Numbered from the stretch's first letter, positions 2 to 35,119 are shown. The stretch is DNA of 64,000 bases from Candidatus Cryptobacteroides sp. (GCA_051870215.1 JBJEBQ010000020.1:1449-65448); one strand, 5' to 3'. Notes: generated by a model from the letters alone, not told the origin. Numbers and translations are program-made.

Positions 2-1534
2 TTTGCGGGTATACTTGCCGGGCATTTCGGTCTGATCATAGACCCGCAAATGCTGGCTTTTGCCCAGAATTTTGGCCTTGTACTCTTCATCTACTCCCTT
101 GGAGTACAGGTCGGTCCAGGCTTCTTCTCGGCATTCAAGCGAGGCGGAGTCAAGCTCAACAGTTTGGCTCTCAGCGTGTTGGCCGTCGGCACAATCATGG
201 CTCTGCTTGTCTGGCAGTTCTCAGGCATGGGCATCAGCACAATTATGGGTCTGTTCTCAGGAGCGGTGACCAACACCCCTATGCTCGGTGCAGCCCAACA
301 GACTCTGCTGCAGATCAATCCGGGGGCTGTCGATGAGGCGAACAATATGGCGATGGCCTGCGCCGTAGGCTACCCGTTCGGTGTAGTTGGCGTGATACTC
401 TGCATCATCATACTGCGAGCCATTTTTTCCAGGAGAATTACGCACAAGCAGAACACCAAAGGTGCAGACAGCGTTTATATCGCTGAGTATCAGGTATGTA
501 ATCCTGCCGTATTCGGTAAAAGCATCAAAGAGATAATGCAGCCGGTAAGCCGCAAATTCATCATCACAAGAGTATGGCGTGACGGCAAGGTACGCATACC
601 GACATCGGACACAGTGATTGAAAACGACGACCACCTGCTGATCATTTCAACAAAAGCCGACGTAGACACCATCAATACGGTGTTCGGGCATCAGGAGAGC
701 AAAGACTGGAACAAACAGGACATCGACTGGGACATCATTGACGAACACGTAGTGTCGCGTCACATCCTTGTGACAAAGCGCGAACTCAACGGAGTCAAGC
801 TCGGCTCGCTTCATCTTCGCAACAACTACGGCATCAATATCACCCGTATCAACCGCGCGGGCATAGACCTGTTGGCAACCCCGGCGCTCAGGCTGCAGAT
901 GGGAGACAAGCTGACTGTCGTCGGAGATCACGAGGACATTGACAAAGTGGCAGATATTCTCGGAAACGAAGCGAAACAGCTGAACACGCCGAACTTGTTC
1001 TCAATATTCATCGGAGTGCTGCTCGGTCTCGTCGTCGGGAGCATACCGTTCTTCATTCCGGGCATAAGCGCTCCGGTAAAACTCGGCATTGCAGGCGGCC
1101 CAATCATCGTCGGTCTTCTAATGGGAGCTTTCGGACCGCGTATCCACATACTCACCTACACCACACGCAGCGCCAATATGATGCTCCGCCAGCTCGGCAT
1201 CACTCTCTACCTTGCAGGTTTGGGACTCAGCGCCGGACCGGGATTCTTCTCAACGGTATTCACAGTCCAGGGACTCGTGTGGGTGTCCATCGCAATCGCC
1301 CTCGCGGTGCTGCCTGTACTGGTCATCGGCTTCATAGCAACGAAATTCTTCAATGTGGACTTCGGCAACAACATCGGAATGCTTTGCGGCAGCATGGCAA
1401 ATCCCATGGCGCTCAACTACGCAAACACTCTCACCGACGACGACAATCCGTCCGTCTCCTACGCGACGGTCTACCCTGTCTGCATCTTCCTGCGCGTCAT
1501 CATCGCACAAATTATCATGCTGATTTTAGCATAG
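2..1534 (+). CDS. YidE/YbjL-family (AAE) putative transporter with two central RCK_C/TrkA-C-like domains; 5' end cut by window edge
   Basis: The frame is open from base 2, with no stop before the first ATG at 50. The translation resembles E. coli YidE along its length (GLVLFIYSLGVQVGPGFF, FSGAVTNTPMLGAAQ, two soluble repeats, second membrane half with SMANPMAL and ATVYP). Confidence 0.85.
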   Translation, partial: FAGILAGHFGLIIDPQMLAFAQNFGLVLFIYSLGVQVGPGFFSAFKRGGVKLNSLALSVLAVGTIMALLVWQFSGMGISTIMGLFSGAVTNTPMLGAAQQTLLQINPGAVDEANNMAMACAVGYPFGVVGVILCIIILRAIFSRRITHKQNTKGADSVYIAEYQVCNPAVFGKSIKEIMQPVSRKFIITRVWRDGKVRIPTSDTVIENDDHLLIISTKADVDTINTVFGHQESKDWNKQDIDWDIIDEHVVSRHILVTKRELNGVKLGSLHLRNNYGINITRINRAGIDLLATPALRLQMGDKLTVVGDHEDIDKVADILGNEAKQLNTPNLFSIFIGVLLGLVVGSIPFFIPGISAPVKLGIAGGPIIVGLLMGAFGPRIHILTYTTRSANMMLRQLGITLYLAGLGLSAGPGFFSTVFTVQGLVWVSIAIALAVLPVLVIGFIATKFFNVDFGNNIGMLCGSMANPMALNYANTLTDDDNPSVSYATVYPVCIFLRVIIAQIIMLILA

Positions 1535-1619
1535 GACCTTCGGACCGCTACGCTCGCCCAGGAAAACAGAGAATGGCTTAATTAAAATGACAGTGAGAAG
1601 GGACACGGAATAACAAGAT

Positions 1620-1651
1620 GAACGGCGTTCGATTCACATCGGACGCCGTTC
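1620..1651. terminator. Hairpin between convergent genes (possible bidirectional terminator)
   Basis: GAACGGCGT (1620-1628) pairs perfectly with ACGCCGTTC (1643-1651) around a 14-nt loop. It lies between the two convergent stop codons. There is no clear U-tract. Confidence 0.4.
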
Positions 1652-1729
1652 GCAATTCTAACCTAAAACTTAACCTATGAAAAAACTATTCGGTTAAAAG
1701 TATTTGCAATTTCTATGCCAAAAGCCGTT

Positions 1730-2425
1730 TTACAACAAATTAATTACGTCTTTTATGCATTTTACTTCGAAAATTCTATTGTTTTCCGGCATATCCATCA
1801 TTTCATGCACCCAAATTACTTCGTGAGGGGTATGAATGGCAGTGCCGCCGATGTTCACGACAGGTGCTATGTCAGATTTGACAGAATTACCTATCATAAG
1901 CAATTCGGACGGGGCGATGTTGTGCATACGGCAGAGTTCGAGGTAATCCCTCTCGCTTTTGTTTTCAAGGACGACGATATGATGAAAATATTTGTCGAGG
2001 CCCGAGCGTCTGTATTTGTACTGCTGTTCCACTATATCGCCTTTGGTGGCACAGACTAGAATGTATTTTTCCTTCAGTGTCTTCAAAGTCTCCACCACGC
2101 CGTCAATCAGTCGGAATTCATGAAATGCCAGTTCTTTGATTATCTTTTTGATGCCTTCGTAGACGTCCTTGGGCAGAGAACCGCCGCAGAGTTCGATTGC
2201 AGCATCAGTCATTCCGATGAGATAGGTTTTCGAGCCATAGCCGAAATAAGGGATATTTTCCTCCTGCTTTGCCCACAGTAGCTTCTGCAGGCCTTCCTTC
2301 GGAGCATACGGAGCCAGGAGCCCGGCAAACTGAGCTTCGGCCTCACGGAAAAAATGCTCGTTTTCCCAGAGAGTGTCGTCAGCGTCAAAGAAGACGTACT
2401 TGTATTTACCGGCAAGAGTTCCCAT
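1730..2425 (-). CDS. HAD-superfamily hydrolase
   Basis: 231-aa ORF with N-terminal YVFFDADDTLW (DxDxT motif I) and a later GNSVKSD-type motif. Its start overlaps the upstream stop by 1 nt. Confidence 0.8.
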   Translation of the reverse strand: MGTLAGKYKYVFFDADDTLWENEHFFREAEAQFAGLLAPYAPKEGLQKLLWAKQEENIPYFGYGSKTYLIGMTDAAIELCGGSLPKDVYEGIKKIIKELAFHEFRLIDGVVETLKTLKEKYILVCATKGDIVEQQYKYRRSGLDKYFHHIVVLENKSERDYLELCRMHNIAPSELLMIGNSVKSDIAPVVNIGGTAIHTPHEVIWVHEMMDMPENNRIFEVKCIKDVINLL

Positions 2426-3144
2426 TATTCCACCGGTTTTTCGTGTGCAAGGCTGTCGGTCCCAGCTGCGAGACTGTCCGATTTGACCGCAAGGCTGTCA
2501 GCCGCTTCCTCAGGCACTGCAGGCTCCACCGGAATGATGGTAATGATGCGCACATCCTCGTAAGGACGGTCATAGCGGTCGGTAGGGACGGAGGCAATCT
2601 TGTCTATCACATCCAGTCCGTCGATGGTTTCGCCGAAGATGGTGTACTGGCCGTCGAGATGCAGGCAGTTGTTTTCGTCCTGTACGATGTAGAACTGCGA
2701 GCCTGATGAAGCCTTGCGCGGATTGGCGATGTCACCCTTGCGGGCTGCTGCCAAAGCGCCCTTTTTGTGCCAGTATTCATTCACAAACTCGGCAGGAATG
2801 GTGTAATCAGGGCCGCCCTGACCGTAGAGTTCCGCTTTGGAAGTGTCCCTGGTGTAAGGGTCTCCGGTCTGTATCATGAATCCGTTGATGACACGATGGA
2901 AGAGAAGACTGTCATAGTAGTGCTCTGCCACAAGTTTCCTGAAATTCTCCCTGTGCAAAGGCGTCTTGCCGTAGAGTTTCACACGCATTGTACCCAAAGT
3001 GGTGACAATGTCAAATTCCGGTTCTGCAATCACATTTTCCATTTTATTCTCCTCATTTTCAATGTTTTTCTTTCTGTTTCCGCAGGAAGCCACCATAAGC
3101 AGGGCCGCTGCGATTACCGATGATACAAGCAATATTCGTTTCAT
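2425..3144 (-). CDS. Cyclophilin-type peptidyl-prolyl cis-trans isomerase, lipoprotein
   Basis: Contains FHRVINGFMIQTGDP and GSQFYIV cyclophilin signatures. The first ATG (3144) gives MKRILLVSSVIAAALLMVASC, a lipoprotein signal. The ORF-track start at 3171 is a TTG lying inside a CAAATTTA -7 box. Confidence 0.9.
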   Translation of the reverse strand: MKRILLVSSVIAAALLMVASCGNRKKNIENEENKMENVIAEPEFDIVTTLGTMRVKLYGKTPLHRENFRKLVAEHYYDSLLFHRVINGFMIQTGDPYTRDTSKAELYGQGGPDYTIPAEFVNEYWHKKGALAAARKGDIANPRKASSGSQFYIVQDENNCLHLDGQYTIFGETIDGLDVIDKIASVPTDRYDRPYEDVRIITIIPVEPAVPEEAADSLAVKSDSLAAGTDSLAHEKPVE

Positions 3145-3168
3145 ACCTTTCTTTTTTGTTACATCCTG

Positions 3169-3176
3169 CAAATTTA
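3169..3176 (-). promoter_or_regulatory. Candidate Bacteroidetes -7 box (TAnnTTTG) for the PPIase gene
   Basis: Plus-strand CAAATTTA is TAAATTTG on the minus strand, 25 nt upstream of the ATG at 3144. Confidence 0.4.
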
Positions 3177-3189
3177 GATAAAATTTCCG

Positions 3190-3197
3190 TATTTTTG
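3190..3197 (+). promoter_or_regulatory. Candidate -7 box (TAnnTTTG) for the flippase gene
   Basis: TATTTTTG about 92 nt upstream of the ATG at 3289, in a divergent intergenic region. Confidence 0.3.
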
Positions 3198-3288
3198 TAA
3201 GCGCATTGCAGATCCTTCGACTTCGCCCTCCGGGCTTCGCTCAGGATGATATAAGGGAGAAGGGTCTGCATGGTATGACATTTTATTA

Positions 3289-4884
3289 ATGAAAACAATG
3301 GCAAATCCGCTTAAACAACTTGCCGGAGAGACGGCTATATACGGTCTGAGTACCATACTCGCAAGAATTATCAACTTTCTTTTCGTTCCGTTCTACACCA
3401 GGCTTCTGACTACGGAAAGCTACGGAGTGGTCACGGAATTCATGGCTTATATCGCAGTGCTGCAGGTCGTGCTCACAATAGGCCTTGAAACGGGCTGTTT
3501 CCGCTTCGCAAACAAAGAAGGGGCAAATGCAAAAGCCGTATATTCAAACGCTTTGGCAGCGGTTTTCGGACTTAATGCAGCCTTCCTGGCAATACTCATA
3601 GCCTTTGCCAAGCCTATAGCCGGAATGCTCGGCTACAGCGGCTACGAAGCGGTCGTAATGTATATGGGAGGCATACTCCTTCTCGACAATGTCACTGCAA
3701 TTCTTTTCGCAAAACTCCGTCAGGAACACAAGGCGCTAAAATTCGCGATATTCAAGACCGTCAAAATCCTCACGGAAACCCTTGCCAACATCGTACTCTT
3801 CTTCTGCTTCCCTGCCTACTGTCTGCGCATTGCGGACTCTCTCGGAAAGACAGTTGACCCGGCAGCTGCAGCGTCATCGGGACTCGGGTTGCTCGACAGC
3901 GGTGATGTATGGCTGCTGCATTTCATCAGTCCCACGCCGGACTTCAGCTATGTGATTTTCGCAGTACTGCTCAGCTGCATAGTCTGCGGTCTGCTTTTCC
4001 TTCCCACCCTGCTGAAATTCAGCTTCGAATTTGACGGCAGACTCTTCAGGCAGATGCTCGCCTACTCACTTCCGCTGATGGTGGCCGCTCTTCCCGGCAT
4101 TGTGAACGACTTTCTCGACCGCATACTCTTCCGCTTCTTCGACACCAACGCGGACGCATGGCGCTCCAGCCTCGGCATCTTCCAGGCGGCCGTCAAGCTC
4201 TCCGTCATAATGAACCTCTTCATACAGATGTTCCGCTACGCCGCCGAACCGTTCTTCTTCCAAAGGGCAAAAGACCGCAACAGCAAGGAGCTGTATGCAC
4301 AGGTCATGGACTATTTCACGGCATTCTGCGGACTGGTATTTCTCGGCGTCATACTCTACATTGACGTCATCTCGCTGATACTCGGACGTGACTTCCGCTC
4401 CGGCGTGGGCGTCGTGCCGATAATGCTATTGAGTTATATGTTCCTCGGAATGCTCTTCAACGTTTCGATGTGGTACAAACTCTCCGGCAAGACCACCATG
4501 TCAATATGGATAACCCTCGCCGGACTTGCCGTCACCACCGCCATCATTGTGATTTTCATGCCGGAATATTCCTATTGGGCAGCCGCCTTCGGACACCTTG
4601 CCAGCTATATAGTGATGTTCATCATCAGCGCGGTGCTCGGCCAGAAATACTACCCGATACCTTACCGCTGGAAACGTCTGTTTGCGATTTTCCTCTGCAT
4701 GGGTGCGGTCTACGGCATTGCACTGCTGTGCGACAGCCTGTTGTTTACCGGTGTCAGCATAGGGACAGGCCATATCGCGGCAGAAATCGGCAAACTCGCC
4801 CTACACACTGTTCTGATCGGTCTCTACGGCTTGGCAGTATGGAAAATCATCCGCCGTCCTGTGAAGACAAGCAACCATCTGTAG
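3289..4884 (+). CDS. MOP-superfamily polysaccharide/oligosaccharide flippase (Wzx/MurJ-like)
   Basis: 531-aa polytopic membrane protein (about 14 hydrophobic segments). Its N-terminus (LAGETAIYGLSTILARIINFLFVPFYTRLL) is typical of polysaccharide biosynthesis flippases. Confidence 0.75.
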   Translation: MKTMANPLKQLAGETAIYGLSTILARIINFLFVPFYTRLLTTESYGVVTEFMAYIAVLQVVLTIGLETGCFRFANKEGANAKAVYSNALAAVFGLNAAFLAILIAFAKPIAGMLGYSGYEAVVMYMGGILLLDNVTAILFAKLRQEHKALKFAIFKTVKILTETLANIVLFFCFPAYCLRIADSLGKTVDPAAAASSGLGLLDSGDVWLLHFISPTPDFSYVIFAVLLSCIVCGLLFLPTLLKFSFEFDGRLFRQMLAYSLPLMVAALPGIVNDFLDRILFRFFDTNADAWRSSLGIFQAAVKLSVIMNLFIQMFRYAAEPFFFQRAKDRNSKELYAQVMDYFTAFCGLVFLGVILYIDVISLILGRDFRSGVGVVPIMLLSYMFLGMLFNVSMWYKLSGKTTMSIWITLAGLAVTTAIIVIFMPEYSYWAAAFGHLASYIVMFIISAVLGQKYYPIPYRWKRLFAIFLCMGAVYGIALLCDSLLFTGVSIGTGHIAAEIGKLALHTVLIGLYGLAVWKIIRRPVKTSNHL

Positions 4885-4928
4885 CGTTGTTAGGATATAA
4901 GAATAAAATTCACAAAAAAAATAATTAA

Positions 4929-4968
4929 AGTCAGTTGCCAATCCCATCTTGACAACTGACTATTTTTT
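4929..4968 (+). terminator. Rho-independent terminator after the flippase gene
   Basis: AGTCAGTTG (4929-4937) pairs with CAACTGACT (4953-4961), followed by T6 (4963-4968). Confidence 0.6.
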
Positions 4969-4991
4969 ATAAGCTATTGATTTTGCTATAT

Positions 4992-7319
4992 TTATTGGTT
5001 GTTACCGACGTTGATATCCTGTCGTATCACAATATCACTATGTTCAAAATTGTGCTCCGAAAGATGTCTGTAGCATTCTGTATAGACTATACCTTTTTTC
5101 TTGGGATCTCTAATCGTAATGATAACTGTGGCTTTAACAGAATCAAATACTCCATCAAATTCACGGTCAGCAATAGTTGCGTCTCTGTAGAGAGCATTAA
5201 TCCTCAGACACCACTTTCTGTCCGACTCAATATATTGAAGATTCCCTTTTCTGATCTGTTCCAGATTTATATGGTATTTTTTGATTGGCTGATACTTCTG
5301 CGCAGTTTCAATCAATGTCCGCTCTTCCATGTATTCGGTCTTCATTGCTCTCTGACTGTACAAATCTTTCGCGAGCATATTTTTCGGATTGACCAGTCTT
5401 ATGGAGTTCCTATACATTGGTGACGTCCCCACTGCTCCCAGAGTATAATACTGAGTCCTATCATAGGTTTGCAGCAACACTTCAACATCGCTTTGGCAGT
5501 ACTCACTTCCTTCTGTCGGTTTCAAGATAGGATCAGTCACTACAGTAACAGTAATATCACCATAGAAATGGCCATCCTCCACCAATGAGACAGGGAAAGG
5601 GATGTCTCTAATCTGTACATCATTAGATAGATCAGGCTGCCAAATCATAGTGAACTCGTCATTATCATTATTGAGGATAGAATCAATGTCCGGCGGTATA
5701 CCATGGCCAAGTTCATTGAGAAGGGTTTTGCTATCTTTCCCGGATACATTTGGATATGTTGCATTATGAACAAGCAGGGCTTTAATCAAATAAGGATCAA
5801 AATCCCTATTGAGACGATGAGCGAGATTTGCCGCCAAAGCCGTAATTCTTGGCGTTGAAAAGCTTGTCCCACGCAATGATGCACACTGATACCCGGTCTC
5901 TGTAAACGAGCAGACCCCAGTATTAGTATTACCTCCATAATGAGCTATGTCAGGTTTAGACAGAAATTCCGGACCAGGTCCAACTCTGGAGAACGGTGAT
6001 TTCTGACCGGCAAGAGCATCTCCTTTCCCTGTATATTCATGGGCTGCAGATGCTACAACCAAACTCCTGACAGAGTCAGCCCCCTGGCAAATCCTTGTCT
6101 CATCGGGCCTCGTATAATCAATATTTCCCGCAGACTTGCATATCAGAATATTGAATTCTTTTTGCAGACTGTCAAGAGCAAACGCAAAGTCAGAAAATGA
6201 TGTATCACTTACCTCAGTCGTAGAGCCCTGCGAAAGATTCCAAACTTTAACATCAGGATTATTTCTTATGGAGGATTTAATGTGTTCAATCATCTCCGAC
6301 TCATACATCCTTACATTACTCTCATCGGTATTGATGATGCAAGATGTTATCTTCATCGGTGAGCACCCAGTCCAATTCTGCCCCTGAAGTTCATCTCCAT
6401 AATTCAGGATTCCAGCAACGGCAGTACCATGACGAAGATTAATATCTTCATCCGCCAAGTCAGCAATGTTCTGATTTGCGCCTTCCATCCAATCACCAAG
6501 ATGTGGGATAGTCTCAATGCCAGAATCCATCAGGCCAACTTTGGGGTAATCCTCACCTTGAATCGGCGCTTTGAGTTCAATTTGAGTGTTGAACGGCTCA
6601 GGAGAGATTGAGAGTTCAATGTATGGCATCTTTTTGACAGAAATTACAGAGTCCATGGTCGCGAGCATGGCAACATCCCGGCGTCCTCTAATGTCAGCAC
6701 AAAAAACATGTACACCTGAGGCGTAGTCAACTCGTTTCACTGAAATTCCAGCAGTTTTACAGTCTGTCATGAAGATATCTTCGGCTATTCTATTGAGCTC
6801 TGCGTTCAGATAATCCACCAACTTGACTTTTACCTGATCCGTATCGATTCCATCATCTATATAAGGTGTAAACAGAGCTATTCCTGTAACAGCCGCAATA
6901 CCAAATTTCTTGTCTTTGCTTATTGTTGACAATCTATCCGGACTCACATTCCTACTGATTCTATCGAGTTCGCTTTTATTGTCTATCTTTACAAGCAACT
7001 TATTGGTGTCACTGACACCGATAATATTTCGCTTCTGCCTTCCATCAAAAATTGACCGCGCATTTGCCCTATATGATTTCGCAGTCGCATGCTCATTAAG
7101 CGTAGCAACGAACAAGACCGGGAGCGGATTTCGGTTATGCTCTCGTTCTGCGAATAACTCCTCAAATGCGCCAAATGATTCTCTTAGAGATGACGCGTTT
7201 GTCATTATTGCATCATCAGTAGCCCATGAAGGAACGTTATTTCCGCCACCACCTTCTTTAAGAAACACGTCAGATTGACCTCGTGTCTTTACTAACTGAA
7301 TTGGATTTGTCTTTTCCAT
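4992..7319 (-). CDS. S8 (subtilisin-like) serine peptidase, IetS-like
   Basis: 775 aa with a complete Asp/His/Ser triad context: VGLMDSGIE, LRHGTAVAGIL, LRGTSFSTPRITALAANLA. There is no signal peptide. About 260 aa N-terminal and about 250 aa C-terminal to the catalytic domain are unassigned. It lies 10 nt downstream of the ATPase gene. Confidence 0.85.
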   Translation of the reverse strand: MEKTNPIQLVKTRGQSDVFLKEGGGGNNVPSWATDDAIMTNASSLRESFGAFEELFAEREHNRNPLPVLFVATLNEHATAKSYRANARSIFDGRQKRNIIGVSDTNKLLVKIDNKSELDRISRNVSPDRLSTISKDKKFGIAAVTGIALFTPYIDDGIDTDQVKVKLVDYLNAELNRIAEDIFMTDCKTAGISVKRVDYASGVHVFCADIRGRRDVAMLATMDSVISVKKMPYIELSISPEPFNTQIELKAPIQGEDYPKVGLMDSGIETIPHLGDWMEGANQNIADLADEDINLRHGTAVAGILNYGDELQGQNWTGCSPMKITSCIINTDESNVRMYESEMIEHIKSSIRNNPDVKVWNLSQGSTTEVSDTSFSDFAFALDSLQKEFNILICKSAGNIDYTRPDETRICQGADSVRSLVVASAAHEYTGKGDALAGQKSPFSRVGPGPEFLSKPDIAHYGGNTNTGVCSFTETGYQCASLRGTSFSTPRITALAANLAHRLNRDFDPYLIKALLVHNATYPNVSGKDSKTLLNELGHGIPPDIDSILNNDNDEFTMIWQPDLSNDVQIRDIPFPVSLVEDGHFYGDITVTVVTDPILKPTEGSEYCQSDVEVLLQTYDRTQYYTLGAVGTSPMYRNSIRLVNPKNMLAKDLYSQRAMKTEYMEERTLIETAQKYQPIKKYHINLEQIRKGNLQYIESDRKWCLRINALYRDATIADREFDGVFDSVKATVIITIRDPKKKGIVYTECYRHLSEHNFEHSDIVIRQDINVGNNQ

Positions 7320-7329
7320 AGCCCGACCG

Positions 7330-8424
7330 TTATTTTGTTGATGCCAGATATTTTTTTACCTTCCTTAAACTAATCCCGGTATCTTGGTTAATTGCCATTT
7401 GCGTCATTCCATGATCACTAAGGAATCGCACATACGACTCCTCCGATTTCTCTGGGAAAACAAGCTCATATGTGGCTGTCAATAGCCTTTCAAGAGGTAT
7501 CTCTTTACTTCCTTCAATCACGCTTTTAACTTTTGCCCTATCAAATATTGTTTTGATATCCGAAGGGGATAAACTTGAAACACTGTTGATGAAAGAATTC
7601 ATCTTCTGTGCATCCGATTTAAGTTCACAAGAAAAAGGAGCCGAGAATACTTCAACCATATCTGCTATCACTTCTTTATCTGGAAGTCCCACTTCTATGG
7701 TTTGCACAAAACGTCTCCATACCGCTTTATCCAAAAGCTCAGGATGATTGGTCGCTGCAATAAGTACACAATTAGCCCCCATGGCATCAATGTTTTGCAA
7801 CAAACTATTGATTACTCTCTTAAGTTCTCCTAATTCGTACTGATCATCCCTTGCTTTAGCTATAGCATCAAACTCATCAAGGAATAAGATACATGGCATG
7901 CTCTGAGCATATTCAAATATCTTTCTGATGTTTTTTGCGGTACTTCCAAGCAAAGAGGAAACAACGCCATCAAGCCTGGCAATAACAAGAGGAAGCCCTG
8001 TCTTCTCGCTGATATAGTGAGCGATGCTGGTTTTGCCACACCCCGGTTTTCCATAAAGGAGCAGAGTCTTCTTAATATCGACACCTGCGATTTCCAAATC
8101 GGCTCCATGCTTGACAATCTCGATAAACTCAGAAACTTGTTTATCTACGGTTTCATTCAGGACAATCAACTGACGTTGATTATCAGATGGATGAATCTCG
8201 ACAATCTGCAATCTGCTATCTGCATCAATGGGGATTGTTTTCATGGCATCTGATAAAACCTGATTCCGACCTTCGTTAGTATCGATGATTTGCCGGATAC
8301 ATTTAGCCAATGACACATCTCCTTCATTTGAAATTCTTTCTGCCAATTTTGAGGAATATGTCAGTATCTTCCTTCTATCATTGGATAACCCACCTTCAAT
8401 TATCCTTAAAATCTCTGTGTTCAT
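7330..8424 (-). CDS. Classical AAA+ ATPase, IetA-like
   Basis: 364 aa with Walker A GKPGCGKTS, Walker B ILFLDEFDAI, sensor-1 ATNHPELLD and an RRF arginine-finger region. Confidence 0.85.
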   Translation of the reverse strand: MNTEILRIIEGGLSNDRRKILTYSSKLAERISNEGDVSLAKCIRQIIDTNEGRNQVLSDAMKTIPIDADSRLQIVEIHPSDNQRQLIVLNETVDKQVSEFIEIVKHGADLEIAGVDIKKTLLLYGKPGCGKTSIAHYISEKTGLPLVIARLDGVVSSLLGSTAKNIRKIFEYAQSMPCILFLDEFDAIAKARDDQYELGELKRVINSLLQNIDAMGANCVLIAATNHPELLDKAVWRRFVQTIEVGLPDKEVIADMVEVFSAPFSCELKSDAQKMNSFINSVSSLSPSDIKTIFDRAKVKSVIEGSKEIPLERLLTATYELVFPEKSEESYVRFLSDHGMTQMAINQDTGISLRKVKKYLASTK

Positions 8425-8445
8425 ATGCGTTCATTTTTGATATTG

Positions 8446-8453
8446 CAAAGATA
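8446..8453 (-). promoter_or_regulatory. Candidate -7 box for the ATPase/protease pair
   Basis: Plus-strand CAAAGATA is TATCTTTG on the minus strand, 22 nt upstream of the ATG at 8424. Confidence 0.35.
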
Positions 8454-8568
8454 TCAATATTTTTGATTATCTGTTCTATTTTCAAAAAAAAACGTTCCAA
8501 ACACAACACATTATGTTCTATTTAAATCTAATTTTGTTCTATAAATGAAGATTCCGGTTTTAAAACAA

Positions 8569-26443: not shown

Positions 26444-28951
26444 TTATTCGACAAGATATGTTCCCTCTATAGTCGGAGCAGTTGCTTTCTTGTAAACATA
26501 ATCCTCCATATTCTCTTCGGTTATCTCGGTGCCGTTTATACTTCCTCCGACGCCACAGTTGGAAATTACTCTGGTTGTCACAGATGTGGTTGCCAACGAC
26601 CTTCCGAGAATGGCGGCGATATTGTTGTTAGTTATAGTGCCGGCAGATGTGAGGGAAGACTTGCTGTCGCATGAAGCAATGGTATAGGCATTGTTTCCGA
26701 TATAACCCACAACTCCTCCGCAGTCAAGATTCGGGCAGGTAACGCTGCCGGTAATTTTGACAGAGATACTGCCGGTATTGTGCAGATTATACAAATTGGT
26801 AGCTTTGCTTGTTGCCGAACCGACACAGCCCGATGCTCTGAGATCCTTGTTTTGAGGAGAGTTGATGATGATATTGCCGCTGTTGTAACATGGAGCATCT
26901 TCCCCGGCAGAAGTTTTGCCCAAAGTTCCACCGACAGAAAGGTTGCCTATAAGTCCTCCTATACGGAATTGGTCACTTGTGCTTCCACTTCCGGCCGTAC
27001 CGGTAATCTCGATATCGCCGCTGTTGGTAACATTCTGCAGGAAATAGCCACCGCTGGTTTTTCCGGCTATTCCGACAACACCTCCGATATCAACCCTATT
27101 GGTGGCCTTGCTGCTGAATGTCAGTTTTCCCTTGTTTTCAGAATCTGATATCACAATGGAATCATGATTTGCGTTACCGATAATACCACCGAATATGGCG
27201 TATGCAGCCGTCTCCGCAACATATCTGACTTCTCCTGAGTTCTCGCAGGACTTGACAGCCAAAGCGGCAACAGCTTTTCCGACAAGTCCTCCTGCCGCAC
27301 ATGATTTACCGACATTGACAGTAACAATACCACTATTTATGCAGTTTTCACAAACAGATGCCGCTGTGGTGTAACCAAGGACGCCGCCCACATTAGGAGT
27401 TCCGCTGGCAATATTCTTGTCCAAAGTGACATTACCATTATTCGTGCAGGTTTTAAACAACACGGCTTGAGTACTATTTCCTACGACTCCTCCTATAGAA
27501 GGAGTGCCGACGCATCCTCCCGCCATAACGATATCGCCATTGTTTGTACAATTTGTAAGATCAGCATTAACCCCAGTTTGAGTTGCACCTACGATGCCTC
27601 CGACAGCAACGAACGTTCCACTACCGGTCGTTGTTCCGCTTTCGTAAGTAACTGCAGCATTATTTATACAGCCGACCAAAGGAACATTGTTGGAAGCACC
27701 AAGAACTCCACCCAAATTGTAGTTGTGAGCTGCACTGAGCCCTGAAACGGTGATTGAACCTGAAACCTCGACATTCTCGATTTTAGGATTCTCACGGGTG
27801 GCGGCAGCAACGTTTCCTTTCGGATAGGCATAGTGGCCGAGGATACCGACGCCGTAGTCTATACCCTTGATTTGGGCGGAAGTCTTGCCGTTGGTCGTTA
27901 TATTGGCGGAAAGTTTCAGGTCGTGGATGTATGCACTTTGGATGTTACCGAAAAGAGGACAGGTAAGTCCGGAAATCGTGTGGCTGTTGCCGTTGAACTC
28001 GCCGTAGAAATTGTTTGCCTCGACATACTTGCTTGCCTCGTCTGCCGAAAGCGCGATATCATTTTTCAAAGTAACCACATCCCATGCTGTGAATTTGGCG
28101 GACTGTCTTGCCCATTTGATGAGATCTTCGGCAGTGTTGATTTCATACACGAAGAAACTGCCGAGATCCTGGCCGTTGCTGCGGACAAAAGCGGTAGCCG
28201 CCTTTTTGGTCACCGTCACTGTCTCATCAGCCAGGTTTGTGAAAGTGACTGCTATTTCTGAAATCCTGGAAGGAATGACGGAAATATAATATGTGCCGGC
28301 TTCAAAGCTCTCCCCTTCCGGTTTGAGAACCACATTTGAAGCTGCATCCCCAGCCGCAGCGGGGGCAAGAACATCAGCAGACAAATCCATTGTGAACTTA
28401 CCTGAGAGTTTCTCCCCTTCTTTGGTTGCAGCCACTTCAACCTGCTTGATTCCGGCAGGAACAGTAAGCTGCATCAGAGCCACGCAGTTCTTGAAGGAAA
28501 GGGTGGTATTCTCCGATTTGCATGCTGCGACAAGAGCGCCTGGAGCCACTTTCTGACCTTTCGCAAGCTGCTGCTCTGAAGGCACGACCGCCGTAAGGAC
28601 ATCTCCCTCGAAAGTGTTCCCTTCGGCGTATGGATAGACTGCAAGGAAAGGAGCCGAACCGTTGATATTCTCCGCACTGAAAGTCCCCTTTGCCGCATCG
28701 AGCAGTCTGCACCCGACGTTTGCGTCATCAGCGGTAGTCACGCCTATTACATCGTCCTCAACCCACTTAGGAGTGTGGCCTTCAAGGGTGGATTTGGTTT
28801 CCAAGGTCTCGAAAGAGGCAGTGAATGCCGGCACATCCACCACAGGCCTGTCCACATCTTCAGGCTTGTCCTGCACGGCCTCTTTGACACATGAAACACT
28901 CGCGAAAATGCCTAACACGGCAAATGCTTTGATAAAGAAAGTATTTTTCAT
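26444..28951 (-). CDS. Large surface lipoprotein with about 11 GLUG-like beta-helix repeats
   Basis: Lipoprotein signal (AVLGIFASVSC). The N-terminal module is fimbrillin-like (tentative). Residues ~410-800 carry repeats of GG[VIL][VIL]G...C.N.G.[VI] (GGVLGASNN, GGIVGATQT, GGVVGNSTQ, GGVLGYTTA, GGLVGKAVA, GGIIGNANH, GGVVGIAGK, GGLIGNLSV, GGVVGYIGN). Confidence 0.8.
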   Translation of the reverse strand: MKNTFFIKAFAVLGIFASVSCVKEAVQDKPEDVDRPVVDVPAFTASFETLETKSTLEGHTPKWVEDDVIGVTTADDANVGCRLLDAAKGTFSAENINGSAPFLAVYPYAEGNTFEGDVLTAVVPSEQQLAKGQKVAPGALVAACKSENTTLSFKNCVALMQLTVPAGIKQVEVAATKEGEKLSGKFTMDLSADVLAPAAAGDAASNVVLKPEGESFEAGTYYISVIPSRISEIAVTFTNLADETVTVTKKAATAFVRSNGQDLGSFFVYEINTAEDLIKWARQSAKFTAWDVVTLKNDIALSADEASKYVEANNFYGEFNGNSHTISGLTCPLFGNIQSAYIHDLKLSANITTNGKTSAQIKGIDYGVGILGHYAYPKGNVAAATRENPKIENVEVSGSITVSGLSAAHNYNLGGVLGASNNVPLVGCINNAAVTYESGTTTGSGTFVAVGGIVGATQTGVNADLTNCTNNGDIVMAGGCVGTPSIGGVVGNSTQAVLFKTCTNNGNVTLDKNIASGTPNVGGVLGYTTAASVCENCINSGIVTVNVGKSCAAGGLVGKAVAALAVKSCENSGEVRYVAETAAYAIFGGIIGNANHDSIVISDSENKGKLTFSSKATNRVDIGGVVGIAGKTSGGYFLQNVTNSGDIEITGTAGSGSTSDQFRIGGLIGNLSVGGTLGKTSAGEDAPCYNSGNIIINSPQNKDLRASGCVGSATSKATNLYNLHNTGSISVKITGSVTCPNLDCGGVVGYIGNNAYTIASCDSKSSLTSAGTITNNNIAAILGRSLATTSVTTRVISNCGVGGSINGTEITEENMEDYVYKKATAPTIEGTYLVE

Positions 28952-33550: not shown

Positions 33551-35119
33551 CTATCTGTATCTAATGCTTATAGCTCCAAATCTTACAAAAGTCCAGTCCT
33601 CCATATTCTGTCTCAAAGAATACAGATGTTTTTCCTCCATAGCCAAAGTGGTGAGATTCTTACGGACCGGACAGATTCTCACATACACGGTCTCCTGCCC
33701 TATGAGGGAGGACGGCAGTTCCACAATATGTTCCGTCAGCCCCATTCCGGCATCGGTGGATGTGAAGTAGCGCACGCCGTTCTGGGAACTCTCCCACCAC
33801 GGGAGGGTACGCAGCTGTATATCGGGCATATCCAACTTGGAAATATGGACATTGTCAGTGGAATACTCCACGCCCCAGAATGCAGGGGCAAATCTGGACG
33901 TCGTTGCGGAAACGGCACCTGCCGCAAAAGAGAATGCAAGATAAAGTCTTTCACCGTCAAGGTCCTTGGTGGAGAATTTCAATACCACTGCGCTGCCGCA
34001 GTCCTCCGCCCAGTTCCACCAGTTTTTCACCTGGGTCCTGATTTCCATAGCTCCCTTGTTGACCTTTCCCCTCGTACCCCGGATTTCCTTGTCAGTGTCT
34101 TCAAGAACGGGATTATTGACATCCATGCCCCTGTAGGTCGAGCTTAAGAAATCCAGGCTGAGTTCGCCCCTGCCTATATCAGGAAGCATTTTTTCATAGC
34201 GGAAACGCTCAACCGCCCCGTCAGTGGTATTGAACTGCGGTGCATTGTCGTTCCAGTTCCATTCGCAGAGAGTAGTGAATGAGGAGCGTTCTTCACGGCT
34301 GAAAGCTATGTCGCTTTCCTCCATAGGACGTATCTGCCATGCCTCGACATGACCGTAGCGGGGTATGTCGCTGCGGAGCAATATGCCGGAAATGCTGCCT
34401 GTCCCCTGCGGGACGCCGGCGCCGGACCTTCTCCACGGCACACGGGAATTTATCACGAGATACAACGGAGCGGCGTTTCTGTCCCAAAGCAGAGTCTGCC
34501 ATGTGTCCATATATCCGACAGGAGAATATTTTGCGTTCAATGCGGTTTTCTTTCCGTACTGCTCCAGTATGTTCACGTATGCCCCGTCCTTGAAGACAAA
34601 TTCGCAGTCAGGAACAGTAACCCAGGTATAAATATCGTCTGCACTCAGTTCGGAGAGCGCCTTGACTTTCCGCGGAACATCAGACCCGCTGCCGGGAACT
34701 ACGGAAACAATGCTGCCGTCGGGGATGTTTTCAATGACAAGTGCCCCGTTGGCATCCTTACGCAACGACGCTCCGCAAAGATTGAGTGTTATTACAGAAT
34801 ACCGCACGGCTTTTTTTGCTTCGGTGTTGAAATGCCGGAACACGAGTCTGGCTCCGAGTTTCCCGTCAAGGCTCTCCACGTATGCTGTACGGTTGCTCAT
34901 CGTGGCAGAGGCGTCCCTATAGGATATCTGCCGGCTGTCGGCAAGGTTTTCATTGCCCGGAGAACTCACCACGAGAGCGCTGAGATACAGGCTGTCGCTT
35001 ACCAACACGGGCTCCGGTCCCGCGGCTTTTTCCTTAAGCTGCCCTATCTCCAGCGTCTGCGCAGAGAGCTTAGCCGGAGTAAGGAGCAGAATCATATATG
35101 ACAGAAGTCTTTTCATCAT
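33551..35119 (-). CDS. PUL-associated secreted protein, paralogue of the C-terminal two-thirds of 35131-37374
   Basis: Signal peptide. It shares blocks with the neighbour: SELSADDIYTWVTVPDCEF vs SELSDDDIYTRITLKDCEF, and SGILLRSD vs SGILVHEK. The tail is FVRFGAISIRYR vs IDYVAVRYNK. A DUF5689 / choice-of-anchor-J-like assignment is only tentative. Confidence 0.7.
   Translation of the reverse strand: MMKRLLSYMILLLTPAKLSAQTLEIGQLKEKAAGPEPVLVSDSLYLSALVVSSPGNENLADSRQISYRDASATMSNRTAYVESLDGKLGARLVFRHFNTEAKKAVRYSVITLNLCGASLRKDANGALVIENIPDGSIVSVVPGSGSDVPRKVKALSELSADDIYTWVTVPDCEFVFKDGAYVNILEQYGKKTALNAKYSPVGYMDTWQTLLWDRNAAPLYLVINSRVPWRRSGAGVPQGTGSISGILLRSDIPRYGHVEAWQIRPMEESDIAFSREERSSFTTLCEWNWNDNAPQFNTTDGAVERFRYEKMLPDIGRGELSLDFLSSTYRGMDVNNPVLEDTDKEIRGTRGKVNKGAMEIRTQVKNWWNWAEDCGSAVVLKFSTKDLDGERLYLAFSFAAGAVSATTSRFAPAFWGVEYSTDNVHISKLDMPDIQLRTLPWWESSQNGVRYFTSTDAGMGLTEHIVELPSSLIGQETVYVRICPVRKNLTTLAMEEKHLYSLRQNMEDWTFVRFGAISIRYR

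Follow-up and report, generated by a model that had tools for sequence, protein, structure and literature searches.

In a 64,000-nucleotide stretch of a Candidatus Cryptobacteroides sp. genome (GCA_051870215.1 JBJEBQ010000020.1:1449-65448; the whole of it is called the window, and positions are counted from its first letter), two adjacent genes encode an AAA+ ATPase and a serine protease of the S8 family. The pair is very probably a canonical two-gene IetAS module, present in the Candidatus Cryptobacteroides (Bacteroidales) chromosome as a horizontally acquired, self-contained cassette of about 3.6 kb. A sequence-only reading of this DNA had proposed an IetAS-like defence pair of an ATPase and an S8 protease, and the family was confirmed by full-length matches to the PADLOC IetA and IetS profiles, by NCBIfam and by the gene order, with ietA directly upstream of ietS at every one of the 30 related loci for which DNA upstream is present. 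The earliest description of IetAS, on Agrobacterium tumefaciens pTiC58, was of a toxin–antitoxin (TA) system that stabilises plasmids, with the protease as the toxin and the ATPase as the antitoxin (Yamamoto et al. 2009, cited in PMC13069673). IetAS was later found to be anti-phage; as of 2026 its anti-phage mechanism "remains unknown" (PMC13069673).

Family assignment of the ATPase–protease pair

Both open reading frames (ORFs) lie on the minus strand and start with ATG, ietA at 7330..8424 (364 aa) and ietS at 4992..7319 (775 aa). The two co-oriented genes 10 nt apart described in the sequence-only reading were recovered as such, and every motif it had quoted (GKPGCGKT and ILFLDEFD in the ATPase, MDSGI, HGTAVAG and GTSFSTP in the protease) was present at the residues listed below. 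The 10-nt spacer CGGTCGGGCT (7320..7329, minus strand) places the genes in tight coupling; among homologues the distance between them ranges from an 8-nt overlap to a 14-nt gap.

A Pfam scan assigned the ietA product to AAA (PF00004, 1.7e-32) and the ietS product to Peptidase_S8 (PF00082, 1.8e-32), with nothing else notable. Comparison with the PADLOC profile hidden Markov models (HMMs), which had been named earlier as a way to check the assignment, gave end-to-end matches for both proteins. The IetA profile PDLC02196 matched the ATPase with E=1e-128 and 428 bits (residues 1-362 on profile positions 3-370 of 374), and the IetS profile PDLC02201 matched the protease with E=8.3e-249 and 825.9 bits (residues 1-774 on profile positions 2-780 of 781); seven more PADLOC IetS profiles also matched the protease. 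PADLOC-DB v2.0.0 has included an HMM specific to this very subfamily since 2023. The top NCBIfam matches, near full length, were IteA_antiphage (NF042959) and IteS_antiphage (NF042956).

The Walker A and B motifs, N226 and R237/R238 of IetA, as well as D265, H297, N399 and S486 of IetS, were invariant in 69 sequences, and with N226 the sensor-1 previously described as intact in the ATPase was borne out. In a Kyte-Doolittle analysis with 19-residue windows, no mean above 1.3 was found in IetA or IetS and both N-termini were hydrophilic, which is consistent with a cytoplasmic location of both proteins; the protease, without any hydrophobic segment by this measure, indeed appeared to have no signal peptide. 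The features of the two genes are as follows.

7330..8424, minus strand: ietA, 364-aa classical-clade AAA+ ATPase, the family's antitoxin
8029-8052, minus strand: ietA Walker A, GKPGCGKT, aa 125-132
within 7939-7962 (aa 155-162), minus strand: ietA pore-loop-1, SLLG
7867-7890, minus strand: ietA Walker B, ILFLDEFD, aa 179-186
7705-7758, minus strand: ietA sensor-1 and Arg fingers (NH...WRRF), N226 and R237/R238
7342..7443, minus strand: IetA C-terminal extension past the AAA lid, aa 328-361, EESYVRFLSDHGMTQMAINQDTGISLRKVKKYLA, predicted as three short, helix-turn-helix (HTH)-like helices
7320..7329, minus strand: ietA-ietS spacer CGGTCGGGCT, 10 nt
4992..7319, minus strand: ietS, 775-aa S8 serine protease, predicted to be cytoplasmic, the family's toxin/effector
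6615..7319, minus strand: IetS N-terminal region, aa 1-235, long helix and two βαββαβ modules
5700..6548, minus strand: IetS S8 catalytic domain, aa 258-540, Pfam PF00082 1.8e-32
6525-6527, minus strand: ietS catalytic D265, in MDSGI
6429-6431, minus strand: ietS catalytic H297, in HGTAVAG
6123-6125, minus strand: ietS oxyanion N399
5862-5864, minus strand: ietS catalytic S486, in GTSFSTP
5016..5687, minus strand: IetS C-terminal region, aa 545-768, β-rich part, then α/β part

The regions on either side of the protease core had been said to match nothing recognisable and had been offered as a sign of a divergent or new variant. This part of the earlier claim did not hold, as PDLC02201 spans residues 1-774 of IetS and the flanks are the IetS family's own conserved domains. 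More than 100 database clusters of about 775-aa length matched IetS at 45-90% identity and 99-100% coverage, with conserved residues distributed across both flanks. An exhaustive search with residues 1-255 of IetS retrieved 172 clusters among 1.84 billion representatives; save for a few short, fragment-like ones, the matches sat at the extreme N-terminus, and the proteins were about 750-820 aa long or fragments. A divergent or new IetAS variant with novel sensor or effector domains at both protease ends is therefore very improbable, even though Pfam sees the S8 core only, no PDB sequence matches full-length IetS, the NCBIfam equivalog cut-offs were missed and the N-domain could not be aligned by BLASTP with Agrobacterium-type IetS. 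Against such a variant stand the match to PDLC02201 over residues 1-774 at 826 bits, the many homologues of equal length, the restriction of the N-domain to IetS-length proteins or fragments and the alignment of the C-domain with an Agrobacterium plasmid IetS. There is also no third gene such as the ietH helicase: the SNF2-family helicase gene of the ietHAS variant was not found in the operon, which is flanked by genes for a UbiA prenyltransferase and a Polysacc_synt flippase. When the 3.8-kb region was compared at the DNA level with genomes and plasmids of E. coli, no match was obtained; the host belongs to the Bacteroidales and is no enterobacterium.

Some points tell against reading the pair as a canonical defence module. 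The NCBIfam scores fell under the equivalog cut-offs (355 vs 510 bits for IteA and 319.5 vs 900 bits for IteS), so that equivalence with the tested systems is extrapolated; phage defence has been demonstrated for a few distant IetAS homologues only; and this ietAS copy is located amid housekeeping genes and not in a defence island. The scores below the cut-offs place the pair within the IetAS family, in a subfamily other than the one on which the strict models are based. As a further Bacteroidales example of a known defence/TA module, the locus is one that PADLOC would call automatically.

Comparison with known IetAS systems

The comparison with the Agrobacterium system was made with the IetAS pair of an A. 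vitis plasmid (L002) as a proxy for pTiC58. As in the pair described here, ietA is followed by a tightly coupled ietS, and the AAA modules of the two IetA proteins are 46% identical. The A. vitis IetS aligned by BLASTP with residues 258-763 of IetS (protease and C-terminal domain) at 25% identity, whereas its N-terminal domain was not alignable in this way. The A. vitis pair also shares 21-nt-phased repeats upstream of ietA, with the core TGCA[ACT]C instead of the RGAACR found here, and a putative HTH-like tail at the C-terminus of IetA. It is plasmid-borne and stands beside Shedu, whereas the present pair is chromosomal and solitary.

Anti-phage IetAS was reportedly tested experimentally by Gao et al. 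2020. The tested anti-phage systems (Gao et al. 2020; B. cereus m1293, Stokar-Avihail et al.; E. coli ECOR52) belong to the same two families by PADLOC and NCBIfam, whereas the present pair represents another subfamily (PDLC02196/PDLC02201) and its host another phylum, Bacteroidota. In B. cereus, IetAS works through abortive infection, and its trigger is the SPbeta protein YosG (10.1101/2022.08.27.505566); synergy studies have made use of an E. coli IetAS system. According to PMC13069673, IetAS depends on protease activity, and it was not possible to construct ietA mutants. By analogy with the tested homologues, abortive infection requiring protease activity would be the expected mode of action here as well.

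SgiAT of Salmonella Genomic Island 1 (SGI1; genes S026-S025), an AAA-ATPase antitoxin with a subtilisin-like toxin, is a functional TA homologue of IetAS (PMC5006074). The likeness was drawn from its description; SgiAT serves island maintenance, and its native promoter appeared to need activation. The ietHAS system (Liu-DS4; PMC13069673) shares IetA and IetS with the present pair, but its SNF2 helicase gene has no adjacent counterpart here.

Related loci in defence and mobile contexts

The link of homologues to defence genes was found in several settings, with Shedu, TIR, restriction-modification/McrBC-like and AbiL/PtuA-like genes as neighbours, together with mobile elements and viral contigs. 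Pairs 73% identical to the present one were located in unrelated contexts, either beside restriction-modification/McrBC-like genes or beside AAA_15/AAA_21 ATPases and a transposase. Shedu adjoins ietAS on the A. vitis plasmid, which is conjugative, TIR proteins and insertion sequence (IS) elements occur near it on an Enterococcus faecium plasmid, and a ThiF-family gene on a Hymenobacter plasmid. Among the 39 upstream neighbours identified at 24 metagenome loci were AbiLi, PtuA/AriA-like ATPases, methyltransferases, HipA, relaxases, an integrase and ArdC, as well as some housekeeping genes. Moreover, 28 IMG/VR viral or proviral contigs (L089-L116) encode full-length IetS relatives of 28-45% identity, with ietA upstream of ietS wherever upstream DNA was present, which indicates that the IetAS family is also phage- or prophage-borne.

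On the Hymenobacter plasmid, pHA of Hymenobacter sp. APR13 (L001 8482-11959), genes for a 394-aa hypothetical protein and a 770-aa ThiF-family adenylyltransferase lie directly downstream of IetAS in the same orientation. They may represent another conflict system or an extended IetAS variant.

Probable horizontal acquisition and conservation of the cassette

The exact IetS sequence has been deposited as "MAG: S8 family peptidase [Candidatus Cryptobacteroides sp.]" (MAG, metagenome-assembled genome), and the same arrangement recurs in a second sample. The composition of the pair differs from its surroundings, with a GC content of 0.40-0.42 and a GC content at third codon positions (GC3) of 0.36-0.39, vs a GC3 of 0.52-0.67 in nine neighbouring genes. 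In 80 related species, the block of HAD hydrolase, isomerase and flippase genes that adjoins the pair was shared at least partly (flippase in 80/80, isomerase in 70/80 and HAD hydrolase in 38/80). No ietA or ietS was found downstream of the block in any of the 80 species within the sequence present, which extended up to 10 kb and came in many cases from short contigs.

The limits of the cassette were indicated by a 93%-identical metagenome copy (L117), to which the similarity starts at a repeat array upstream of ietA and ends just past a hairpin downstream of ietS; the contig of this copy has little sequence further upstream of the array. From these limits, a cassette of about 3.6 kb (~4927-8545) comprising repeats, promoter, ietA, ietS and terminator was derived. 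The hairpin (4929..4961, minus strand) is kept in L117; it probably serves as the terminator and marks where the acquired cassette ends on its 3' side. The non-coding features are as follows.

8473..8540, minus strand: repeat array of four RGAACR ("iterons"), candidate operator, exact 21-nt spacing
8446..8453, minus strand: predicted promoter box TATCTTTG, -29..-22 from the ietA ATG, fits the Bacteroidetes -7 consensus TAnnTTTG
4929..4961, minus strand: hairpin (13-bp stem) and T-rich tail, 30 nt past the ietS stop

Taken together, the foreign composition, the absence at this locus in the 80 species and the cassette limits point to a recent horizontal acquisition. No convincing direct repeats that would mark an insertion were found flanking the cassette, and within the window no tRNA, Rfam family, integrase, transposase or other defence gene was detected.

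Against the L117 copy, a 90-93%-identical relative, the ratio of nonsynonymous to synonymous substitution rates (dN/dS) was 0.063 for ietA and 0.086 for ietS, at a dS of 0.5-0.6. Both genes are under strong purifying selection. The values against relatives of 73-75% identity were unusable due to the saturation of synonymous sites. Judged by its sequence, the pair is a recently acquired and presumably functional cassette outside a defence island. The locus indicates that IetAS moves as a ~3.6-kb cassette without a recombinase of its own and can land among housekeeping genes outside defence islands.

The selection on both genes also bears on the question of whether the pair is mainly a plasmid or mobile-element addiction module acting by post-segregational killing, which would be present here as a stranded remnant without a part in defence against phages. 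IetAS was discovered on pTiC58 as a stability/incompatibility TA, SgiAT stabilises SGI1, and many homologues are carried on conjugative plasmids or stand beside relaxases and integrases, all of which would suit such a role. In the window, however, no plasmid, integrase, transposase or tRNA was found near the pair and so nothing is left to stabilise, both genes are nevertheless strongly selected, and anti-phage activity has been shown experimentally for homologues. This explanation is considered unlikely, and addiction and defence are not mutually exclusive roles.

A 21-nt-phased repeat array upstream of ietA

The gap of 144 nt between the stop codon of the prenyltransferase gene and the start of ietA holds four RGAACR repeats at a spacing of exactly 21 nt, with GAAC at 8539-8536, 8518-8515, 8497-8494 and 8476-8473, i.e., at -115, -94, -73 and -52 from the ietA ATG. 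The predicted -7 promoter box of ietA, TATCTTTG, matches the Bacteroidetes consensus TAnnTTTG of the Bacteroides promoter literature, and the promoter-proximal repeat falls at about the position expected for a -33 element. In an ungapped footprint alignment of nine loci from unrelated contexts, with 61-93% IetA identity, only the GAAC blocks and TATnTTTG were invariant upstream, besides one lone T and the ATG, with the third position of the promoter-proximal GAAC block differing in one of the nine loci.

The spacing is not confined to the closest relatives. Among 18 loci, 5-mer self-matches at a 21-nt shift numbered 114 vs 8.4±4.1 in shuffled sequences (maximum at any shift 31), and in a second, independent set, made up of 53 non-redundant loci from metagenomes, 307 were counted vs 21.6±6.4, with a 42-nt harmonic of 135; the 21-nt signal was present in 40 of these 53 loci. 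Three to five short direct repeats at this spacing thus precede ietA in most IetAS loci, across phyla. The cores found elsewhere at the same spacing are AGAAAC (Hymenobacter), GGAAC (Enterococcus), ATTACGAT/TTACG, GCACG, ATAAC and TAACG. On the A. vitis plasmid, TGCA[ACT]C occurs five times, at -128, -107, -87, -66 and -45 (steps of 21, 20, 21 and 21 nt), and a chain of three or more such repeats arose in 0 of 20000 shuffles.

The repeat core was found to track helix 3 of the predicted IetA C-terminal tail. SLRKVK occurs with GAAC in 10 of 10 loci, SIRQ[VI]R goes mostly with TTACG, SIRQIK with GCAC(G) and P[IL]R[KR] mostly with ATAAC. Since IetA and IetS are the only proteins that travel with the repeats, and the proximal repeat lies at about the -33 position, we infer that IetA binds the 21-nt-phased repeats and autoregulates the operon. 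In a fuller form of this proposal, which we regard as an even call, IetA would be a DNA-binding AAA+ protein besides being an antitoxin, its HTH-like tails docking the oligomer on three to five repeats that are exactly two helical turns (21 bp) apart and cover the upstream half of the promoter. The arrangement would be conserved from Bacteroidota and Bacillota to the founding Agrobacterium clade, and the repeats would vary in sequence together with the recognition helix. If this is true, a single ring would link the dosage of the operon to the restraint of the toxin, and infection might be sensed in part through IetA leaving the DNA or IetS. The array was not mentioned in the searchable literature, a scope that does not include the founding 2009 IetAS paper.

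A perfect palindrome, TTGATAT-N7-ATATCAA, over TATCTTTG (8437-8457, minus strand) was considered as an operator and rejected as a feature of the family, as it is absent from the 93%-identical L117 and from L005 and L007. It is probably incidental or strain-specific.

Predicted structure of IetA

In the AlphaFold2 (AF2) model of IetA (predicted local distance difference test, pLDDT, 78), the AAA module resembles those of FtsH, PAN, Rpt and p97. The best sequence match was p97 residues 215-386, which correspond to the D1 domain. The pore-loop-1 SLLG (within 7939-7962, aa 155-162) was nearly invariant in 69 homologues and has no aromatic residue, and the pore loop of p97-D1, KLAG, likewise has none. 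An aromatic residue at this position is usual in classical AAA ATPases that thread their substrates. The non-aromatic loop argues for a role of IetA as a clamp or regulator and against strongly processive unfolding.

The pore loop is also relevant to a third explanation, in which the pair would not be a conflict system but a housekeeping regulated-proteolysis or quality-control pair of an AAA+ unfoldase and a protease, such as FtsH, Lon or the proteasome. The closeness of the IetA AAA module to the p97, FtsH, PAN and Rpt unfoldases and the housekeeping neighbours fit this view, but processive unfoldases do not typically have Leu where IetA has it, in place of the aromatic residue of the pore loop. 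Considering also the foreign composition, the absence of the pair at this locus in the 80 related species, its patchy distribution over phyla, plasmids and viral contigs and its membership in defence-family HMMs, a housekeeping function is the least credible of the alternatives, with hardly any likelihood.

The C-terminal extension of IetA is a putative DNA-binding part. It was modelled by AF2 as three helices (328-337, 342-349 and 353-361; pLDDT ~90), and in this model the three-helix tail looks like an HTH. The pattern G-x-[ST]-Q-x-x-I-…-[SP]-x-R-[KQR]-[VI] is conserved in the tail across clades. A likeness to the HTH of the Fis/NtrC type was considered, and the hhalign comparison with Fis came out not significant (E=0.25). 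An AAA+ ring with a small C-terminal DNA-binding tail (predicted in IetA) and phased sites upstream of the promoter are also shared by the bacterial enhancer-binding proteins (NtrC). Unlike these, IetA belongs to the classical (p97/FtsH) clade and has no significant HTH_8/Fis similarity; its match to Sigma54_activ_2 was sub-threshold (15.8 bits vs a cut-off of 25), and the role expected of it would be repression, as opposed to sigma-54 activation by NtrC-type proteins.

Predicted structure of IetS

The AF2 model of IetS had a mean pLDDT of 85.9 and a predicted template modelling score (pTM) of 0.82. It starts with a long helix (aa 35-62), followed by two βαββαβ-type modules, of which the second (aa 162-230) directly precedes the catalytic domain, with a low-confidence linker (aa 235-243) between them. 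After the catalytic domain, a β-rich part and then an α/β part were modelled. The best Foldseek matches were ProN-Tk-SP (3afg), KP-43, unprocessed pro-subtilisin E (3whi), furin/kexin and PCSK9, and the alignments exceeded the length of a mature domain (621 columns to 3afg and 716 to PCSK9). By sequence, Tk-SP was the closest solved relative (E=1.3e-7 in a family profile search); a phmmer search of IetS against PDB sequences gave no match, and only the family profile reached Tk-SP. No match to Pfam I9 (Inhibitor_I9) was found in IetS.

The model suggests a zymogen-like IetS in which the S8 core is preceded by an I9-like module and followed by a P-domain-like one. Its best structural matches are pro-subtilases with C-terminal β-domains (Tk-SP/ProN-Tk-SP 3afg, KP-43, kexin/furin and PCSK9); Tk-SP, KP-43, furin and kexin are subtilases that end in β-jelly-roll or P domains. 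The pro-subtilases Tk-SP, KP-43, kexin/furin and PCSK9 are secreted and self-processing, whereas IetS is predicted to be cytoplasmic and is partnered by an ATPase, and unlike them it has two N-terminal βαββαβ modules and an extra α/β part at the C-terminus. The likeness of a confident model to an unprocessed pro-subtilase would point to prodomain control as a step that the ATPase may govern.

Proposed mechanism

TA behaviour, in which IetS is toxic alone and is neutralised by IetA, is known for the pTiC58, SGI1 SgiAT and ietHAS homologues. In the mechanism proposed for the present pair, IetS would be made as a zymogen-like protein with an I9-like N-terminal and a P-domain-like C-terminal module around the S8 core. 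The IetA ring, with its p97-D1-like AAA module and non-aromatic SLLG pore loop, would restrain IetS in an ATP-dependent manner, and phage infection would disable or titrate IetA, so that the protease is freed and the cell arrested. The HTH-like C-terminal tail of IetA may bind the 21-nt-phased repeats abutting the promoter, leading to autoregulation of the kind exerted by classical antitoxins.

Several results count against this scheme in its details. The propeptide-like interpretation of IetS was based on topology and on the Foldseek alignment lengths and not on a residue-level alignment. For the IetA tail, the hhalign alignment with the Fis HTH was in register and, at E=0.25, not significant; the best interpretable PDB HTH profile match, 2x48, was likewise not significant (E=0.12), no Pfam HTH match was found in the tail, and Pfam scans of the IetA termini alone were uninformative. 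The covariation of repeat core and helix 3 is confounded by shared ancestry. The repeat array and the HTH-like tail provide a testable hypothesis of autoregulation and assembly for a system of unknown mechanism (PMC13069673).

Neighbouring genes and other observations in the window

The genes flanking the cassette encode a YidE-type transporter, a HAD hydrolase, a cyclophilin-type peptidyl-prolyl isomerase and a Wzx-like flippase, and further a UbiA/MenA-like prenyltransferase, PheS (pheS) and C69 and Dpp7 peptidases; SusC-like receptors and an RND pump are more distant.

ORFs of 775 and 776 aa past the flippase gene in two related species (L013 12390-14717 and L025 11529-13859) were considered as diverged IetS and rejected: they encode GH20 beta-hexosaminidases, and the similar length is a coincidence. 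In the locus checked, a ROK kinase gene stands beside the GH20 hexosaminidase gene. The occurrence of GH20 genes at the corresponding position indicates that the site is variable but no defence hotspot.

In many related species (L009-L088 compared with window 50-4884), the flippase gene is followed, directly or after a GH20 gene, by the gene of a YidE-type transporter on the opposite strand. In the window, the YidE-type transporter gene lies on the other side of the HAD hydrolase and isomerase genes, and ietAS, the UbiA prenyltransferase gene and pheS come after the flippase gene. A simple inversion was rejected as the cause of this position of the transporter gene, as it does not explain the local rearrangement by the insertion point.

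Two further ORFs on the minus strand, of 835 aa (26444-28951) and 522 aa (33551-35119), had no Pfam match at E<=1e-5. They cluster with genes for a SusC-like receptor, a BNR/Exo_endo_phos protein and a DUF5689 protein.

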